Part shown: one piece after another, positions 36,682 through 45,548 of the stretch
Numbering within the stretch: the stretch's first letter is position 1
Layout: each line of letters begins with the position of its first letter
Origin: Candidatus Staskawiczbacteria bacterium
GTDB taxonomy: Bacteria > Patescibacteriota > Minisyncoccia > Minisyncoccales > Staskawiczbacteraceae
NCBI GenBank assembly: GCA_026395175.1
Contig: JAPLZF010000017.1
Span: 12,017-76,016, forward strand
DNA: 64,000 nucleotides
Reading direction: 5' to 3'
The notes under the pieces: generated by a model
What the model saw: the letters and a program-made list of their open reading frames with translations, nothing else
Told to the model about the DNA's origin: nothing
The model's database searches: none
Made by a program: the position numbers and the translations under genes

Positions 36682-37806
36682 ATGCTGAAAAATATTTTTA
36701 AAGATTATATCTATCCCATTTCTGCTTTTGCCGGCGGGATGATTGGCGTTGGTTTTTTGTCTTTGCCTTATATTGCGATGCAAGCAGGCATTTGGCTGAT
36801 GCTTTTGTATTTTTTAGTTTTAACAGCTTTAACAATTGCAATCAATTTGATTTTTTGCGACATAAGCTTGAAAACTCCTGACTTTAAAAGATTCCCAGGA
36901 TTCGTTGGGCATTATTTGGGGAAATGGCCGCAGGCTTTTACGATGATTTTAATGATTTTAGGAAGTTTCGGAGTGCTTTTGGTTTATTTGCTGATTGGCG
37001 GGGAATTTTTGACTTCAGTTTTTCAGCCGATATTTTCCGGAAGCAATTTGATTTACGTTCTAATTTATTTTTGCGCGGTAAGCATAATCGTTTACCTCGA
37101 TATAAAAATAATTGCCAGAGTGGAATTTTGGGTCATAGTTTTGCTTTTTATATCTATATTTTTAGTTTTCATAGAAGGTTTTTCCCACATAAAATTAAGC
37201 AATATTTTTATTCCAAATTCGAAATTTGAAATTCAAAATTTATTCCTGCCATACGGACCTTTGCTGTTTTCATTATGGGGAATCGGGCTGATACCGGAGA
37301 TAGAAGAAATGCTTATCGGAAAGAAAAAACATCTTAAAAAAATAGTTGTGATATCTACCATAGCAATTTCAGTTTTTTATTTTTTATTTGTTTTGCTGAT
37401 ATTGGGAATTACAGGAATCAAAACAGACCAAACCGGGCTTACAGGACTCAAAGATTTCTTGGGGGGAAATATGGTTTCAGTGTCGCTTTTGGTGGGAATT
37501 ATGGCAACCTTCACCGCTTTTGTCACGCAGGGAATTGTTTTTAAAAAAGTTTTAATGTTTGACCTTGGCATTAAGCATTGGCAGGCGTTTGTCATAACCT
37601 GCTTTACTCCAATGATACTTTTTTTGCTGGGACTGAAATCTTTTGTGACATTAATATCATTGACAGGAGGAGTTTTGCTGGGAATCGACGGAATTTTAAT
37701 TTTACTGATATACAAAAAGGTTGGAGGGAAAAATATCATAATTTATCCTTTGTCATTAGTATTTTTGCTGGGAATAATTTATGAAATAATATACTTTATC
37801 AAATAA
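36682..37806 (+). CDS. Putative amino-acid permease (Trp/Tyr-permease / AAAP-like), about 11 TM
   Basis: N-terminal GGMIGVGFLSLPYIAMQAGIWLMLL motif and polytopic hydrophobic profile. Confidence 0.5.
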   Translation: MLKNIFKDYIYPISAFAGGMIGVGFLSLPYIAMQAGIWLMLLYFLVLTALTIAINLIFCDISLKTPDFKRFPGFVGHYLGKWPQAFTMILMILGSFGVLLVYLLIGGEFLTSVFQPIFSGSNLIYVLIYFCAVSIIVYLDIKIIARVEFWVIVLLFISIFLVFIEGFSHIKLSNIFIPNSKFEIQNLFLPYGPLLFSLWGIGLIPEIEEMLIGKKKHLKKIVVISTIAISVFYFLFVLLILGITGIKTDQTGLTGLKDFLGGNMVSVSLLVGIMATFTAFVTQGIVFKKVLMFDLGIKHWQAFVITCFTPMILFLLGLKSFVTLISLTGGVLLGIDGILILLIYKKVGGKNIIIYPLSLVFLLGIIYEIIYFIK

Positions 37807-38781: not shown

Positions 38782-41319
38782 ATGGCATTTTCTCAATTCA
38801 CAAATAAATCTCCAGAAGAAGTTTTCAAGATTTTTAAAACTTCCGGCGGCGGCCTCTCAAAAAAAGAGGCGAATTTTGCTTTGGCAAAATTCGGTCTGAA
38901 CGAGGTGAAGACCAAAAATATCAATGCCCTGGAAATTTTTGTCAGGCAATTGAAATCTCCTTTTGCCTATTTGCTTTTAATTGCGGCGATAGTGTCTGTT
39001 TTTATCGGCCAGCCGGTTGACAGCATTGCAGTTTTGGCTTTTATTTTTATCAATGTTTCCATCGGATTTTTTCAGGAATATAGGGCGGAGAGAGCGGTGA
39101 TTCTTTTGCAAAGATTCATTCCCCAAAAAGTAAAAGTTTTGCGCGATTCAAAAGAAGAAGTCATCGATAAAAAATTTTTGGTGCCGGGTGATGTTGTTTT
39201 ATTGGAGGCCGGCGACAATGTTCCTGCCGACTTGCGGGCGATAAATCTGGAAAACTTTTTAGCCGACGAATCGGCTTTGACCGGCGAATCTGTTCCGGCT
39301 TCTAAAATTATAGAAGCTTTGCCAAGCGAAGAAAAAGAAATTTTCAAGGCAAAGAATATTATTTTTTCAGGCACTTCTGTTATTTCCGGCAAAGCCCGGG
39401 CTATTGTTGTGGCTGCCGGCAAAGACACGGTTTTTGGCAACATTGTCAAAATAATTTCCGGCATAAAAAGAGAATCAGCCTACGAAAAAAGCATCATATA
39501 TTTTTGCAAGCTGATTTTAAGGATTGTCGCCACCACAATAATCTTAATTTTTATTGCCAATATTCTGCTGAAAGGAATAAATGATATTTTGGAGCTTCTT
39601 TTGTTTTCTGTTGCCTTAATAGTGAGCATTCTGCCGGAAGCCCTGCCGGCCGTTGTGACTTTTGCGCTTTCTGAAGGAAGCTTGAAAATGGCGCGGCAAA
39701 AAGTTGTTGTGAAAAGATTGTCGGCAATTGAAGATTTGGGCAACATAGAAGTTTTATGCGCCGACAAAACAGGAACGCTGACTCAGAATAAATTATCTTT
39801 GGAAGAAATTGTTTCCTCTGACAAGAAAAAATGTTTTTTGTACGGAATTTTGACTTCGGGAGCCAAAGACAAAGACGACAAAATTTTGAATCCGTTTGAC
39901 TCGGCTTTATTTGCTCGTGTTCCGGATGATGTTTTGAGGCAGTCAAAAAAGTTTGAAATAATTTCAGAATTGCCGTTTGATTCTTACAGAATGAGGTCTG
40001 CATTTTTGGCGCAATCATCTAAAAACGAGAGATTTTTAATTGTTAAGGGAGCTCCGGAATCAATTTTGAAAAACTGCTCGAAGTTTGGCGGGAATTTTGA
40101 CAAAAAAGAGATTAAGGAAGATGTGGAAAAAGAAGGACTGGAAGGAAAAAGAGTTTTGGCGCTGGCGTTTAAAAAAGTTGATAAAGAAAAAAATAATTTA
40201 AAAGTTGAAGATGAAAAAGGGCTTACTTTTTTGGGATATTTTGTTTTTGAAGACCCTCTGAAAAATACAGCCAAAGAGGCGATAGAATTGTCAAAAAAAT
40301 TAGGAGTCCAAATTAAAATTATTACAGGAGATTCAAAAGAAGTTGCAGGATATGTCGCCAGAAAAACCGGCTTGGCTTCAAGCGAGCAGGATATTATTTC
40401 AGGCCAGGAATTGGAAAAATTGACAAAAGAAGAATTTGACGACGCCTGTCAGGAAAAATCTGTTTTTGCCAGAATTTCTCCGGACGTAAAGCACAATATA
40501 ATAAAATCTCTGCAGAAAAAATACGAAGTCGGATTTTTGGGAGAAGGAATAAATGACGCGCCGGCGCTAAAAACAGCCGATGTGGGAATTGCCGTTGTCG
40601 AGGCGTCTGATGTTGCCAGGGAAGCCGCAGATGTTGTGCTTTTGCAGAAAGATTTGCGGGTTATTGTAAATGGGATTAAAGACGGCAGAATGATTTTTGC
40701 CAATATCAACAAATATATAAAGTGCGCTTTGGCGAGCAATTTTGGTAATTTTTATTCAATTGCCGTAATTTCCTTGTTTATAAATTACTTGCCAATGCTT
40801 CCGGTGCAAATTTTATTGGGGAATATTTTGTCTGATTTTCCTTTAATTTCTGTTGCCACAGATTCGGTTGACATCGACGAATTAAGAAAGCCAAAATTGT
40901 ACCAGCTTCATAATATTTTGCCGTTAATAATTTCTTTAGCCTTGGTAAGCACAGTTTTTGATTTTATATTTTTTGCCATTTTTTTTAGGCAGGCGCCGGC
41001 GACCATACAAACTTTGTGGTTTATTGAAAGCATTTTAACCGAGCTTTTGCTGATATTCATCATTAGGACAAGGGGAAAATTTTGGCAGGCAAAAAGGCCG
41101 AGCGCTTGGATGATATGGCTAGCTGCAATTGACGCAATTTTTATTGTTGCTTTGCCATTTTTAAAAATTGGGCAGAGCTGGTTTCACTTTGTTGCTTTGC
41201 CAATTTTGCCGCTACTGATTGTGTTTTTGGAAATTGTTGCATATTTTTGGGTCAGCGAATTTGTAAAATTAATTTATTTCCATTATTGGAAAATTCCAAA
41301 TAGTGGTAATATCAAATAA
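38782..41319 (+). CDS. Cation-transporting P-type ATPase (Ca2+/Mg2+ type)
   Basis: CADKTGTLTQN phosphorylation site, LTGESVP actuator motif, GEGINDAPALKTADVGIA hinge, and N-terminal Cation_ATPase_N-like segment. Confidence 0.9.
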   Translation: MAFSQFTNKSPEEVFKIFKTSGGGLSKKEANFALAKFGLNEVKTKNINALEIFVRQLKSPFAYLLLIAAIVSVFIGQPVDSIAVLAFIFINVSIGFFQEYRAERAVILLQRFIPQKVKVLRDSKEEVIDKKFLVPGDVVLLEAGDNVPADLRAINLENFLADESALTGESVPASKIIEALPSEEKEIFKAKNIIFSGTSVISGKARAIVVAAGKDTVFGNIVKIISGIKRESAYEKSIIYFCKLILRIVATTIILIFIANILLKGINDILELLLFSVALIVSILPEALPAVVTFALSEGSLKMARQKVVVKRLSAIEDLGNIEVLCADKTGTLTQNKLSLEEIVSSDKKKCFLYGILTSGAKDKDDKILNPFDSALFARVPDDVLRQSKKFEIISELPFDSYRMRSAFLAQSSKNERFLIVKGAPESILKNCSKFGGNFDKKEIKEDVEKEGLEGKRVLALAFKKVDKEKNNLKVEDEKGLTFLGYFVFEDPLKNTAKEAIELSKKLGVQIKIITGDSKEVAGYVARKTGLASSEQDIISGQELEKLTKEEFDDACQEKSVFARISPDVKHNIIKSLQKKYEVGFLGEGINDAPALKTADVGIAVVEASDVAREAADVVLLQKDLRVIVNGIKDGRMIFANINKYIKCALASNFGNFYSIAVISLFINYLPMLPVQILLGNILSDFPLISVATDSVDIDELRKPKLYQLHNILPLIISLALVSTVFDFIFFAIFFRQAPATIQTLWFIESILTELLLIFIIRTRGKFWQAKRPSAWMIWLAAIDAIFIVALPFLKIGQSWFHFVALPILPLLIVFLEIVAYFWVSEFVKLIYFHYWKIPNSGNIK

Positions 41320-41320
41320 T

Positions 41321-41782
41321 ATGAAAATCAAATCTTTTTTAGTAATATCTTTTTTAGCAATAATAATTTTATGTTCTGCCAGTTTTGCCACGGCTCAAAC
41401 TGCAGATAATTCAACGCTAATTGCCCAGCTTCAGGCAGAAATTGAACAGTTGTCAGCGCAATTGGCTCAGCTTCAGGCAAAGCAAGAATCGTCGCCCGCG
41501 TCATCAGTTTGGTGCTACACTTTTTCTGATAATTTGAAAGCCGGAAATGCAGGTCCTGCGGTTTTGGCATTGCAGACAGCTCTTTTGAAAGAGGGTTTGT
41601 TTTCTGTTTCTGCCACAGGAACTTTCGGTCCAAAAACCGCTTTGGCTGTTGCAAGCTTCCAAGAAAAATATGCCAGCGACATTTTAACTTCAAGCGGATT
41701 AACAAAAGGCACAGGCTATGTTGGCCCGGCAACAAGAACAAAATTAAATGCGCTGTATGGTTGCGCAACAATTCCTAAATAA
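41321..41782 (+). CDS. Secreted peptidoglycan-binding-domain protein (153 aa)
   Basis: Signal peptide MKIKSFLVISFLAIIILCSASFATAQ and PG_binding_1-like GNAGPAVLALQTALLKEGL...FGPKTALAVASFQEKY...YVGPATRTKLNALYGC. Confidence 0.7.
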   Translation: MKIKSFLVISFLAIIILCSASFATAQTADNSTLIAQLQAEIEQLSAQLAQLQAKQESSPASSVWCYTFSDNLKAGNAGPAVLALQTALLKEGLFSVSATGTFGPKTALAVASFQEKYASDILTSSGLTKGTGYVGPATRTKLNALYGCATIPK

Positions 41783-41794
41783 TTTTTCAAACCC

Positions 41795-41824
41795 TTGCAT
41801 AACTCTGCTGGGGGGGGGTATTAT
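41795..41824 (+). promoter_or_regulatory. Putative promoter TTGCAT-18-TATTAT whose spacer contains a G9 homopolymer
   Basis: ttgcat at 41795-41800, spacer aactctgctgggggggg with G9 at 41810-41818, tattat at 41819-41824. Confidence 0.5.
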
Positions 41825-41854
41825 TAGATAATATAATTAAAATAATTAAAAACC

Positions 41855-43144
41855 ATGAAAATTAAGTCTATTATATTCACAGCTGTTTTAGCAACAGCAG
41901 TTTTGTGTTCGCCATTTATTGCTTCAGCCGCCAGTTTAACAAGCTCGCAAATATCTGCAATAATGAACCTGCTTTACGCATTTGGAGCAGATTCAGCAAC
42001 AATTGCCAATGTGCAAACCTCGTTAACCGGCGGAACGCCAAATATTTTGTCTAATTCTTGGTGCCACACTTTTAATGCAAATTTAGGAGTTGGCAATGCC
42101 GGCAACGAAATAGCCGCGTTACATGCAGCTTTAACTAAAGAAGGTTTTACTAGCACCTCATGGAGAGCCGACAATTTTACAGAAACTACGGCTTCAGCAG
42201 TAGTCCAGTTTCAACAGAAATATGGAATTAGCCGAACAGGTTATGTTGGTCCATTAACCCGAGCAAAATTAAATGCTTTATATGGATGTAGAATAATAAC
42301 CCCGCAAAATATTACAATTAATTCTGTTTCTGGGCCAAACTCGCTTAATGTTGGGCAAACAGGAACCTGGACAGTAAACGCAACAGCTCCAAGCGGAACA
42401 AATTTAACATACAGAGCAGCGTGGGGCGAATATGATGGCTATATGGGAATTTCTTCCCAAGCAATCCCAACTGGCTTAATTAATCAAACCGGCACATTCA
42501 CTCATTCTTATGCCAATGCAGGCACCTACACCGCAACATTTATTGTTTACAGCGGATATAATTGCGTAAATTATTCCACCGGAGCGCTAAATTCTGCTTG
42601 CAGCTCTACTCAAACCAGCCTAACTGTTGTTGTGGGAGCAGTTAATGGCAATTTATCAATAACTTATCCTTCCGACCCGGCTAATTGGCATGATTATGTT
42701 GGCGGAAATTATTCCAAAGTTTTTAGTGTTGTAAACTCATCGGCTAGCCGGCATTATTCGTGGTCAATTACCAGCGGTTCTTTGCCATCGGGTCTAAATT
42801 TAACTAATCAGTTGGTTGCCTGTGCTACATATGCTTGCGTTGTTGGCCAATATTGTCCGCCTTGCCCAGATGGTTCTAGTCAAATAATTATTACCGGCAC
42901 TCCAACTCAAGCCGGCAATTTTCCATTTACTTTGACTGTTCGCGACGACCTGGGCAACACCGGCTTAGTAAACCTCAACATTTACATTGAAACAATGTCA
43001 GGATGCGCTAACCTATATTGGGCAGACAATACAAATAGAAGCTGTCAGACAATGAGACAATTTTGCGGAGCATATATGTATTATGGTTTGTATACATTTA
43101 ATACCCAGCAAGATTGTATAAATGCAGTCACGTCTGGGCATTAA
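41855..43144 (+). CDS. Secreted protein: PG-binding domain plus PKD-like and Ig-like domains (429 aa)
   Basis: Signal peptide. PG_binding_1-like segment paralogous to the previous gene (YVGPLTRAKLNALYGC). PKD-like GQTGTWTVNA...HSYANAGTYTATFIV. Ig-like SLPSGLNL...ITGTPTQAGNFPFTLTVRD. Confidence 0.75.
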   Translation: MKIKSIIFTAVLATAVLCSPFIASAASLTSSQISAIMNLLYAFGADSATIANVQTSLTGGTPNILSNSWCHTFNANLGVGNAGNEIAALHAALTKEGFTSTSWRADNFTETTASAVVQFQQKYGISRTGYVGPLTRAKLNALYGCRIITPQNITINSVSGPNSLNVGQTGTWTVNATAPSGTNLTYRAAWGEYDGYMGISSQAIPTGLINQTGTFTHSYANAGTYTATFIVYSGYNCVNYSTGALNSACSSTQTSLTVVVGAVNGNLSITYPSDPANWHDYVGGNYSKVFSVVNSSASRHYSWSITSGSLPSGLNLTNQLVACATYACVVGQYCPPCPDGSSQIIITGTPTQAGNFPFTLTVRDDLGNTGLVNLNIYIETMSGCANLYWADNTNRSCQTMRQFCGAYMYYGLYTFNTQQDCINAVTSGH

Positions 43145-43158
43145 AAAATAGAATAAAA

Positions 43159-43185
43159 AGGCGGGAAGAAATTCTCGCCTTTTTT
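43159..43185 (+). terminator. Intrinsic terminator
   Basis: Stem aggcgggaa / ttctcgcct with loop gaaa, followed by a T-run. Confidence 0.7.
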
Positions 43186-43240
43186 AGTGGGATATAATAA
43201 CAAATGGTTGAATATAGTAACAAGAATATATAAGGAACAT

Positions 43241-43280
43241 ACCGGTAGCGTTTTTGCCTCCAGGCAAAAACGCTACCGGT
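43241..43280 (+). repeat. Perfect 18-bp-stem palindrome, copy 1 (upstream of PaaX-like gene 1)
   Basis: accggtagcgtttttgcc tcca ggcaaaaacgctaccggt. Confidence 0.9.
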
Positions 43281-43328
43281 AACATTAAATTCTTTTGTTG
43301 TGATATAATAGAAATATATAATAAAGAT

Positions 43329-43883
43329 ATGAGTTCTGTAACGGAAAAAATATTGTTGCATTTATATGATTGCGTTGATTATGGTTTTAGTTATCGGGCG
43401 AAGAAGGGGTTTTTTATTTCGGAATATTTTGACCACTGGAAAAATGAAATTAGTCCCAGTAAAATTAAAGACGGCATAAGGGATTTAAACAAGCAGAAAT
43501 TTATCAGGAAGAAAGAAAAATATGACGGTTCGGTGTTTGTCTCGCTTACAGAGAAGGGCAGGCTGAGAGCTCTTAACCTTAAATTCAGGTGCCTTGGGAA
43601 CAAAAAAGAAAAATGGGATGGAAAATGGCGGATGGTGGCTTTTGATATTCCCGATAAATATAAAAAAGGAAGAAGTGCATTAAGATACAGACTGAAAATG
43701 GCGGGCTTCTACGAACTTCAGGAAAGCTTATTTTTATATCCTTATGATTGCCAAGAAGAGATGAAAAATCTTGTAAATTTATTTAATTTGCGAAAGTATG
43801 TATGTTTTGCAGTAATCACCAGTATAGACGACGAAAGAATTATAAGAGTAGAGCAAAGAATAAAAAAGCTTAAAACGTCGTAA
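43329..43883 (+). CDS. PaaX-like regulator (winged helix plus Cas2-fold PaaX_C-like domain), paralog 1
   Basis: WDGKWRMVAFDIPDKYKKGRSALRYRLKMAGFYELQESLFLYPYD matches the W.G.W..V.FD.P...R..LR..L...GF..LQ.S pattern. The ATG at 43329 follows an extended -10, tgaTATAAT (43301-43309). Confidence 0.6.
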   Translation: MSSVTEKILLHLYDCVDYGFSYRAKKGFFISEYFDHWKNEISPSKIKDGIRDLNKQKFIRKKEKYDGSVFVSLTEKGRLRALNLKFRCLGNKKEKWDGKWRMVAFDIPDKYKKGRSALRYRLKMAGFYELQESLFLYPYDCQEEMKNLVNLFNLRKYVCFAVITSIDDERIIRVEQRIKKLKTS

Positions 43884-43889
43884 TTTGTG

Positions 43890-43933
43890 ATACTGGTAGC
43901 GTTTTTGCCTCCAGCCAAAAACGCTACCAGTAT
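43890..43933 (+). repeat. 18-bp-stem palindrome, copy 2 (downstream of PaaX-like gene 1)
   Basis: atactggtagcgtttttg cctccagc caaaaacgctaccagtat. Shares the core ggtagcgtttttgcctccag.caaaaacgctacc with copy 1. Confidence 0.9.
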
Positions 43934-43950
43934 ACCAGTAATATATTGGG

Positions 43951-44050
43951 TTTAGTTTAGTTTAGTTTAGTTTAGTTTAGTTTAGTTTAGTTTAGTTTAG
44001 TTTAGTTTAGTTTAGTTTAGTTTAGTTTAGTTTAGTTTAGTTTAGTTTAG
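43951..44050 (+). repeat. Pentanucleotide microsatellite (TTTAG)x20
   Basis: I counted 100 nt of perfect tttag units. Degenerate T/G-rich sequence follows to about 44100. Intergenic, upstream of rmuC. Confidence 0.95.
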
Positions 44051-44112
44051 TATTGTTCTGTTGTTTCTTGGTAAATTTTGCGTTGGGTTTAGTTTTGAGG
44101 TAGAATAATATT

Positions 44113-45132
44113 ATGGACATTACAACAATACTTTTAATTGTAATTGCGGTGGGGGTGGTGACGGCGATTTTTTTGTTGGTTGTGCGGAGAAGTCCTTCGA
44201 CGGGCTCAGGACAAAAGCAAGACGATAACTCGTTCTTGCTTTTGCATCAGCAGATAAATCAAATTGCGCAGGCAGTTGATTCAAAGTTGTCCGAGTCAAA
44301 TAAAAATGTTCAGGAGCAATTTAAGCATTCAGCCGACATTATTAGAAATGTTACCGAAAAATTAACCAAGCTGGACGAAACAAACAGGCAAGTGGTTGGG
44401 TTTGCCGACCAGTTGAAAGGCTTGCAGGACATTTTGAAAAATCCAAAACAGCGGGGGATTTTGGGCGAATATTATTTGGAAACTGTTTTAAAAAATGTTT
44501 TACCGCCGGGTTCTTACCAAATGCAATATGGGTTTTCAAACGGAGAAATTGTTGACGCGGTTGTTTTTGTGGACAAAAGAATAATTCCAATTGACTCAAA
44601 ATTTTCTTTAGATAACTACAACCGAATGCTTCAGACAAATGACCCTTTAGAGAAAAAAAGACTTGAAACAGCTTTTGTTAATGATTTAAAATTAAGAATT
44701 GATGAAACCTCAAAATATGTACGGCCAGAAGAAAAAACAATGGATTTTGCTTTTATGTTTATTCCGTCTGAAGCTGTTTATTATGACTTGCTGATAAACA
44801 AAGTGGGAGTTGTTTCTGAAGACACAAATAATTTAATTTATTATGCCGGCAAGAAAAAAGTTATTGTTGTTTCGCCAACTTCATTTTTGGCATATTTGCA
44901 GACGGTTTTGCAGGGGCTGAGAAATCAAAAAATTTCAGACCAGGCGCAGACAATAATTAAAGAAGTTGAAAGGCTGGGCAAACATTTGTTTACGTATTCA
45001 GAACATTTTAACCGGCTGGGCACGCATTTGGAAGCAACAACAAGCAGCTTTAACAAGGCAAAAGTTGAATTTGGCAAAATTGACAAAGACGTTGTAAAAC
45101 TTACGGGCAGCAACCCAACGCTTGACGAATAA
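44113..45132 (+). CDS. rmuC: DNA recombination protein RmuC
   Basis: N-terminal TM, coiled coil, GILGEYYLETVLKNVLP...VDAVVFVDKRIIPIDSKFSLDNY and FMFIPSEAVY. The -10 tagaat (44101-44106) ends 6 nt before the ATG, so the mRNA may be leaderless. Confidence 0.8.
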   Translation: MDITTILLIVIAVGVVTAIFLLVVRRSPSTGSGQKQDDNSFLLLHQQINQIAQAVDSKLSESNKNVQEQFKHSADIIRNVTEKLTKLDETNRQVVGFADQLKGLQDILKNPKQRGILGEYYLETVLKNVLPPGSYQMQYGFSNGEIVDAVVFVDKRIIPIDSKFSLDNYNRMLQTNDPLEKKRLETAFVNDLKLRIDETSKYVRPEEKTMDFAFMFIPSEAVYYDLLINKVGVVSEDTNNLIYYAGKKKVIVVSPTSFLAYLQTVLQGLRNQKISDQAQTIIKEVERLGKHLFTYSEHFNRLGTHLEATTSSFNKAKVEFGKIDKDVVKLTGSNPTLDE

Positions 45133-45160
45133 GCCATTTTTTGCTAAACTATATCTATTA

Positions 45161-45233
45161 CGCTCGGCAATCAAATTTTTTTTCGCTAAGTCCTCGCTTC
45201 GCTGCGGAGCTCAAAAAAATTTATTGCCTCGCT
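45161..45233 (+). repeat. 73-nt palindromic intergenic element, copy 2 (9 nt before the rplU ATG)
   Basis: Identical to copy 3 and 1 nt different from copy 1. Confidence 0.9.
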
Positions 45234-45242
45234 TATACTTAC

Positions 45243-45548
45243 ATGTTAGCTATTATAAAAACCGGAGGTAAGCAATATATTGTTAAACCCGGAGACAAAT
45301 TAAAAGTGGAAAAATTGGACAAGAAAGAAGGTGAAGCCTTTTATTTTTCAGATGTTTTATTGGTTGAAAAAAATAAAAAAATTGAAATTGGAACTCCTTT
45401 AGTAAAAGCAGAAGTGCAGGCAAAAGTTGTAAGCCATGGGAAAGGAGACAAAATAATTGTTTATAAATACAAACCGAAAAAAAGAGAAAGCAGAAAAATT
45501 GGCCACAGACAGCCATATACAGAAATAGAAATTATTGGCATTAAGTAA
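45243..45548 (+). CDS. rplU: 50S ribosomal protein L21
   Basis: MLAIIKTGGKQYIVKPGDKLKVEKL...GHRQPYTEIEI. The ORF-track start at 45141 runs through the repeat, so the start was moved to the ATG at 45243. Confidence 0.9.
   Translation: MLAIIKTGGKQYIVKPGDKLKVEKLDKKEGEAFYFSDVLLVEKNKKIEIGTPLVKAEVQAKVVSHGKGDKIIVYKYKPKKRESRKIGHRQPYTEIEIIGIK

Follow-up and report, generated by a model that had tools for sequence, protein, structure and literature searches.

A poly-G tract in a promoter-like spacer upstream of a secreted PG-binding protein gene of Candidatus Staskawiczbacteria: a candidate phase-variation switch

The locus and its G9 tract

The analyzed window was a 64-kb stretch of DNA (GC 39%) from a Candidatus Staskawiczbacteria MAG. 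A homopolymer of nine G residues, read directly from the sequence at 41810-41818, was found between two genes for secreted PG-binding proteins, 36 nt upstream of the second one, which encodes a protein of 429 aa. The features of the locus are as follows.

41321-41782, + strand: upstream paralog, a 153-aa secreted protein with signal peptide, coiled coil and PG_binding_1
41795-41800, + strand: -35-like hexamer TTGCAT, 3 of 6 positions matching TTGACA; the identical box occurs in the ortholog at locus L215 (CCTTGCATAACT)
41801-41809, + strand: non-repeat part of the spacer, AACTCTGCT, 9 nt
41810-41818, + strand: G9, the proposed slippage tract
41819-41824, + strand: -10 hexamer TATTAT (5 of 6), directly adjoining the tract
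41819-41834, + strand: block TATTATTAGATAATAT, comprising the -10 and the likely start-site region, conserved in related promoters
41832-41837, + strand: second -10-like hexamer, TATAAT, without a TG extension; the tract sits at its -35 position
41855-43144, + strand: 429-aa secreted protein with signal peptide, PG_binding_1, PKD, He_PIG and a Cys-rich C-terminal module
43155-43185, + strand: hairpin terminator closing the transcription unit, 13-bp stem, -17.3 kcal/mol, z = -4.1

The gene for the 153-aa protein begins 1 nt past the stop codon of a P-type ATPase gene (38782-41319). The N-terminus of the 429-aa protein (MKIKSIIFTAVLATAVLCSPFIASA) reads as a Sec signal peptide and, together with PG_binding_1 (Pfam PF01471, E = 5e-9), PKD and He_PIG, characterizes it as a predicted secreted or surface product. 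It belongs to the Patescibacteria family of secreted PG_binding_1 proteins and carries the invariant columns C70...Q120...G129...R136...C145 of alignment A1. The N-terminal 150 residues of the two proteins were 43% identical (E = 4e-28), and the flanking genes proved to be the paralogous secreted PG-binding pair that had been proposed, with the domains as described.

The tract had also been claimed to be the only long G/C homopolymer of the window, and the census agreed, since no other G or C run longer than six was present in the 64 kb. The next longest homopolymers of this kind were three G6 runs, and the longest C run was five. The G6 runs were read as coding and without a promoter-like setting (the ORF list was compared only for 37461-37466). 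The number of runs of at least nine G expected in the window was 0.04 under independent bases and 0.14 under a first-order model, so that the single G9 observed is more than chance would give. It is also the sole run in the 64 kb that reaches the length associated with slippage (about 7 nt or more).

TTGCAT and TATTAT are separated by 18 nt, exactly as originally predicted, and the tract lies between them. The pair matches the consensus at 8 of 12 positions; moving the -35 by one (TGCATA) gives an equal score with a 17-nt spacer. The promoter was not listed by the consensus promoter scan, the -35 being only 3/6, and relatives were therefore used as evidence. Downstream of TATTAT, the sequence continues with TAGATAATATAATTAAAATAATTAAAAACC up to the ATG at 41855. 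The second -10-like hexamer was present as predicted, although at 41832-41837 and not at 41833-41838. The tract ends at 41818 and TATTAT begins at 41819, so a tract lying over a hexamer, of the opc or tprL type, does not describe this promoter. TATAAT as an alternative -10, with the tract over its -35, had no support from the relatives.

No terminator-like site was found by the pattern scan in the 72-nt gap separating the two genes (41783-41854). The hairpin at 43155-43185, whose stem is flanked by A and T runs, was missed by the same scan. A role at the RNA level was considered, in which the gap would terminate or attenuate transcription of the upstream gene or would give the downstream gene a 5' leader that is structured or rich in G. 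CCC at 41792-41794 could pair with part of the G run, but the fold of the gap was no better than that of shuffles (z = +0.56), and the Rfam search of the gap returned no family match beyond a chance hit (E = 0.75). The tract lies upstream of the -10 in relatives and would thus not be transcribed from that promoter. The terminator and riboswitch readings were rejected because of the missing hairpin and U-run site, the z value and the lack of an Rfam match, and an RNA-level element as a whole is very improbable.

The 429-aa gene has no Shine-Dalgarno sequence. Across the whole window, a Shine-Dalgarno-like core preceded 4 of the 47 ORFs of at least 150 aa, and the leaders were A/T-rich; the gene at 41855 is therefore no exception in this genome, and translation initiation in the window seems, judging by these leaders, largely SD-independent. 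Neither mutS nor mutL was found among the large ORFs of the 64-kb window, a span that cannot show genome-wide absence. The interval 43240-43281 is a perfect 42-nt palindrome, TACCGGTAGCGTTTTTGCCTCCAGGCAAAAACGCTACCGGTA. It precedes a PaaX_M-like gene (43329-43883) by about 48 nt and could serve as an operator or as a site of recombination.

Tract length among near-identical contigs

Exact-protein look-ups yielded eleven Logan contigs from two studies carrying these genes. Identity to the window was 100% in all eleven, as far as the end of the 429-aa gene or of the contig (0.9-4 kb), and an additional G in one of them was the only internal difference. Six contigs (L001, L003-L006 and L011) carried G9, the same as the window, while L002 (ERR15302197) carried G10 as its sole difference from the window in 2430 nt. 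The remaining four contigs, originating from four runs (L007-L010), started exactly at 41811, that is, with G8 and the following 23 nt. Because Logan assemblies use 31-mers, a contig start at G8 plus 23 nt corresponds to a 31-mer branch between T-G8 and G-G8, and suggests that alleles of G8 and of at least G9 share a sample.

Tract length was thus polymorphic with unchanged flanks (G9, G10 and breaks at the G8 boundary), and the fixed G9 that would speak against the original prediction was not what the comparison among assemblies gave. The pattern is that expected of a hypermutable site. Library PCR or sequencing can also produce one-G differences at a G9, and what the breaks in the contigs record is read heterogeneity, whatever its cause. 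Poly-G artefacts exist on two-colour instruments, and a chimeric join would be a further way to produce a false run. The tract was, however, found with the same flanks inside seven independent contigs from two studies in addition to the MAG, and the homologous promoters of many other assemblies carry it as well; an artefact of sequencing or assembly was accordingly rejected, its probability being practically negligible.

L007 departs from the window only from 43191, downstream of the 429-aa gene. At 1381-1826 this contig holds a 436-nt cassette, encoding a 92-aa MarR/HTH_5-like protein, in place of 43191-44109 with its PaaX_M-like gene, the gene side being identical. Since most Logan contigs of this strain stop at 43171-43255, the samples seem to contain two alleles of the cassette. 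With at least two strain variants present in the samples, the tract alleles could be strain-fixed differences and not the product of rapid switching.

Within-species variation was also sought for four further homologs, where one or two contigs each were available and G8 was unchanged or the contig was the same record. In three pairs of independent assemblies of relatives (L216/L106, L218/L013 and L219/L021) the consensus length was equal, G8 in both members, which indicates that consensus states are fairly stable.

Recurrence of the tract in promoters of related genes

Homologs of the 429-aa protein numbered 246, nearly all from Patescibacteria, and outside this strain none exceeded about 63% identity. 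The scan was restricted to one genome per species and covered 80 loci with homologs (573 kb), or 637 kb with the window included. The loci were located with a 7-sequence alignment, a 29-sequence alignment having no sufficiently conserved stretch. For each of the 88 family genes, the sequence within 450 nt 5' of the PG-binding domain was defined as the upstream zone, and these zones make up 3% of the strand-sequence.

On both strands of the window and the 80 loci, 16 of the 18 runs of at least eight G were located inside upstream zones (binomial p ≈ 8e-23). For G6 runs, none was inside compared with 63 outside. Zone runs comprised two of length 7, nine of length 8, six of length 9 and one of length 10. 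Most G/C runs of at least seven in the 80 loci lay a few tens of nt 5' of the homolog; in these, the sense strand carried the G residues and a -10-like hexamer followed immediately. A sense-strand run of at least seven G was observed at 18 of the 88 family genes, and a C7 run at two more (L031 and L048). About 20 of the 88 family genes, or about a quarter, thus carry a G7-G10 or C7 tract at the promoter. Relatives lacking any tract at this position, the other outcome that had been named as contrary to the prediction, were not the result obtained.

The setting of these tracts was promoter-like. At 12 of the 20 tract sites, at least 9 of 12 positions matched TTGACA/TATAAT with a spacing of 15-19 nt; for positions drawn at random from these loci the figure was 1.3%. 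Spacers measured 15 nt at three sites, 16 at seven, 17 at five, 18 at one and 19 at four, and in the relatives the tract lay 0-3 nt from the -10. A perfect TTGACA was found at the corresponding place in L106, L214, L074, L078 and L088, and it was in AT-rich relatives that the textbook promoter layout was seen around the tract, as in the following examples.

L078: TTGACA-cggtgtt-G9-TATTAT, spacer 16 nt
L074: TTGACA-taggagtt-G9-TATTAT, spacer 17 nt
L088: TTGACA-attatatta-G7-TATTAT, spacer 16 nt
L214: TTGACA-tggcttgc-G9-TATTAT, spacer 17 nt
L021: TTGACA-cagaatta-G8-ag-TATTAT, spacer 18 nt

The block at 41819-41834 was identical in L044 and L106, was kept in L067 through TATTATTAGATAATA and had one change in L215; TATTATTAGATAAT on the 3' side of the tract is common to the window, L044, L067 and L106.

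Two observations were made in the GC-richer loci L020, L025 and L026. Three bases (TGG, TTG or TGA) separate the tract from the -10, and the arrangement in L026 fits an extended -10 (TGn). A motif resembling GCGCTGTCC was also present 20-28 nt upstream of the tract (L020, 3313-3342; L025, 3925-3954; L026, 940-969 and 3924-3953).

These results bear on the possibility that the run is a neutral homopolymer in an operon spacer, in which case the ATPase gene and both paralogs would be co-transcribed, the hexamers would be chance matches in AT-rich sequence and the run would have no function. Such a reading is in keeping with the lack of a terminator between 41782 and 41855, with the weak -35 and with the number of promoter-like sites in the region (9, compared with 7.4 in shuffles), -10-like hexamers being common in AT-rich spacers. 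It does not account for the enrichment of tracts upstream of homologs, for the relatives with a consensus TTGACA at canonical spacing or for the conservation of the block G(n)TATTATTAGATAAT across species, and an unselected G9 would be expected to decay quickly. A neutral spacer was therefore regarded as improbable.

Five closer relatives share all or part of the gene order, consisting of the P-type ATPase, one or more secreted PG-binding genes, RmuC and ribosomal protein L21. In the window this order occupies 38782-45548, and it is wholly or partly kept in L212-L215 and in L106/L216. The C-terminal modules of the PG-binding orthologs (PKD, He_PIG, Kre9_KNH and the Cys-rich module) were shuffled between them. 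The spacer measures 16 nt, with G8, in L106/L216 (P0003) and 17 nt, with G9, in L214 (P0013), whose flanks are identical, a second instance of a length difference between unchanged flanks. In L214, a leader of about 190 nt (about 1340-1500) with the GC-rich, palindromic repeat-like sequence CGTCATTGCGAGGAGCCACAGCGACGAAGCAATC lies between the G9 promoter and the gene and is absent from other family promoters.

The tract was absent from three of the six positional orthologs (L212, L213 and L215), and since half of the closest positional orthologs are without it, it has evidently been gained and lost. L215 (P0022) keeps the window promoter, from the -35 box to TATCATTAGATAAT, with AACTGTGTAAATAGAGAG replacing the window's AACTCTGCTGGGGGGGGG. 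Its spacer is 18 nt, as in the G9 state, with AAATAGAGAG in place of the G run, and the alignment gives it the appearance of a tract that has been interrupted and locked. If L215 is locked at 18 nt, the geometry of G9 has been fixed elsewhere by evolution and G8 need not be the optimum; the original expectation that loss of one G, giving 17 nt, would produce the optimal spacer was thus not upheld.

The comparison with relatives also bears on a second alternative, a static promoter element, in which the G run would act by its sequence, for example as a spacer or extended -10-like polymerase contact or as a regulator site, and differences of one G would be noise or neutral drift. Strand bias is consistent with it, G being on the sense strand in 18 of the 20 tracts compared with two C tracts. 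The same holds for position (nearly all tracts touch the -10, and they are nearly always within 0-3 nt of it), for the equal consensus lengths in the three assembly pairs and for the absence of G6 from upstream zones, which implies that the tracts are kept long. Common descent explains the strand bias and the contact with the -10; a sequence-specific role would fit them too. A fixed site is, on the other hand, hard to reconcile with lengths of 7-10 and spacers of 15-19 among homologous promoters, with the G10 consensus in one otherwise identical assembly and with L215, which retains the whole promoter after replacement of the run. A long homopolymer would also be a poor encoding of a fixed site at 39% GC. 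The C-tract versions (L031 and L048) count against it as well and are as expected if length, and not sequence, matters. Overall, the static element was considered unlikely, although it is the alternative to be taken most seriously.

The layout itself was then considered independently of the gene family. Metagenome contigs were scanned for TTGACA-N5-10-G7-TATTAT with the downstream gene unconstrained. At least 121 matches were obtained, forming at least 85 sequence clusters. Among the matches listed, spacers were concentrated at 16-17 nt (51 of 85 clusters), the pattern allowing six gap lengths equally and a maximum spacer of 17, and 8 of the 17 multi-member clusters were polymorphic in the number of G residues. 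Signal-peptide-like downstream ORFs accounted for 60% among the matches listed, compared with 25% of background ORFs, as determined by a crude rule. The layout is a recurrent device beyond this family or phylum. That it might be specific to this gene family was rejected, as 6 of 121 among the matches listed precede a family gene.

Further observations concern individual contigs of this and the preceding scan. In human-gut contigs (GC 0.5-0.57), which we take to be from Firmicutes, TTGACA-N-Gn-TATTAT was present upstream of lipoprotein genes (MRLILMSNISRRKFLKGAG... and MRLFKKAAVCLLAAAMAVSMLTAC...). One group comprised L093, L097, L101, L132, L137, L139, L159, L163, L170, L191 and L197, and another L099, L120, L128, L152, L153, L172, L195 and L196. 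Among near-identical flanks, G7/G8 or G7/G8/G9 were found, and by their sequence these lipoprotein promoters look phase-variable. On CPR-like contigs, G-tract promoters were also observed before genes outside the family (L014, 156-164; L126, two sites; L130; L146). The two sites of L126 precede adjacent paralogs, with G7 and G8, respectively, whose proteins start MxxExGPKYTPxxQAEIEKSRTLSDA. A gene for a membrane-anchored periplasmic-binding-like protein lies behind a G10 promoter on a CPR-like contig.

The proposed switch model and known systems

The preferred reading is that G9 is a slipped-strand promoter-spacer switch for the gene of the 429-aa protein, to which a probability of roughly 60% was assigned. 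The polymorphism among contigs and the tracts in relatives both support the original designation of the run as a candidate phase-variation switch. According to this model, G9 would form the slippery part of the spacer in a sigma-70-type promoter extending from TTGCAT (or TGCATA) to TATTAT, and this promoter would drive the gene for the secreted PG-binding/PKD/Ig-like protein. Slipped-strand mispairing during replication would add or remove one G, the -35 and -10 would come to lie 17 nt apart with G8, 18 nt with G9 and 19 nt with G10, and promoter strength would shift with it. The population would then consist of cells making different amounts of the surface or secreted protein. We infer from the patterns described above that the hexamers are a real promoter, that tract length alters transcription and that the changes are reversible and frequent. 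With no terminator between the paralog and the promoter, read-through probably gives a basal level of expression, and graded volume control is thus more likely than strict ON/OFF switching.

A wider claim is that poly-G, rarely poly-C, spacers are a conserved contingency device by which Patescibacteria of many classes vary modular secreted PG-binding Ig/PKD proteins. This is a tentative proposal, held at slightly less than even odds. Such proteins are plausible host-cell-wall adhesins of episymbionts. Nearly all known cases of phase variation by simple repeats come from pathogens that are cultured and adapted to a host. Patescibacteria live as ultra-small episymbionts and depend on attachment to other bacteria. 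A slippery promoter before a secreted PG-binding gene leads to the hypothesis of population bet-hedging in host attachment, with phage or host evasion as an alternative benefit, and this hypothesis gains weight from the finding that, across the phylum, about one homolog in four has a tract at the same place in the promoter. If true, slippage-driven surface variation would be part of the CPR lifestyle. Given the gut contigs that carry the layout, with G7/G8/G9, before lipoprotein genes, uncultured bacteria may also use the device far more often than work on pathogens would lead one to expect. In practical terms, the tracts mark a class of site where MAG assemblies break or mis-call length.

In the literature searched, no phase variation, homopolymer or slippage switch was described for Patescibacteria/CPR. 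The only related paper on CPR slippage found there concerns a Gracilibacterium, in which a hypervariable 9-mer coding for a PTD repeat array was linked to slipped-strand mispairing (PMC6851277). That repeat is coding and no expression switch was proposed for it, whereas the tract of the window is a promoter homopolymer. The mechanism proposed here is classical; what appears to be new is its occurrence in this phylum and this gene family, together with a tract position conserved throughout the family.

The closest known systems are found in Treponema pallidum, where the effect of poly-G was shown with reporters and tract length varies within isolates (PMC7864442). In tp0126 the poly-G lies between -35 and -10 and activity peaks at a spacing of 17 nt; for tprE/G/J, eight G or fewer are permissive; and tprL carries 7-11 G, mostly nine, with 8 G more active than 10 G (PMC7864442). 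The resemblance to tp0126, tprE/G/J, tprF/I and tprL consists in tracts of about 7-11 G in sigma-70-type promoters, a putative one in the window, of surface or outer-membrane genes, several of them paralogous. The differences are that Treponema is a spirochaete pathogen with other gene families, and that an effect of the tract in the window is a prediction. The tprL tract, moreover, extends into the -10 region, with transcription starting 4 nt downstream, while in the window the tract ends where the -10 begins.

In Neisseria meningitidis porA, poly-G in the spacer alters the distance between the hexamers and sets expression of a surface protein from high to none (PMC7864442). The window resembles it in having a homopolymer in a promoter-like spacer before the gene of a predicted surface or secreted protein, the effect in the window being predicted. 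In Neisseria opc, the tract is a poly-C located over the -35, a mechanism that would apply to the window only if TATAAT (41832-41837) were the real -10. The original Neisseria work is reportedly that of van der Ende in 1995 and Sarkari in 1994. Both porA and opc differ from the present case in being single genes of a host-restricted pathogen, without family-wide conservation across a phylum.

The vlp genes of Mycoplasma hyorhinis are said to carry a poly-A tract just 5' of the -10 of each gene, with the paralogs switching independently, as reportedly described by Yogev in 1991 and by Citti and Wise in 1995. Here too a surface multigene family, a homopolymer 5' of the -10 and a small-genome, host-dependent bacterium are combined, but the vlp tract is poly-A of about 17 nt and serves lipoproteins, whereas the tracts described here are G7-G10 and are carried by only about a quarter of the family members.
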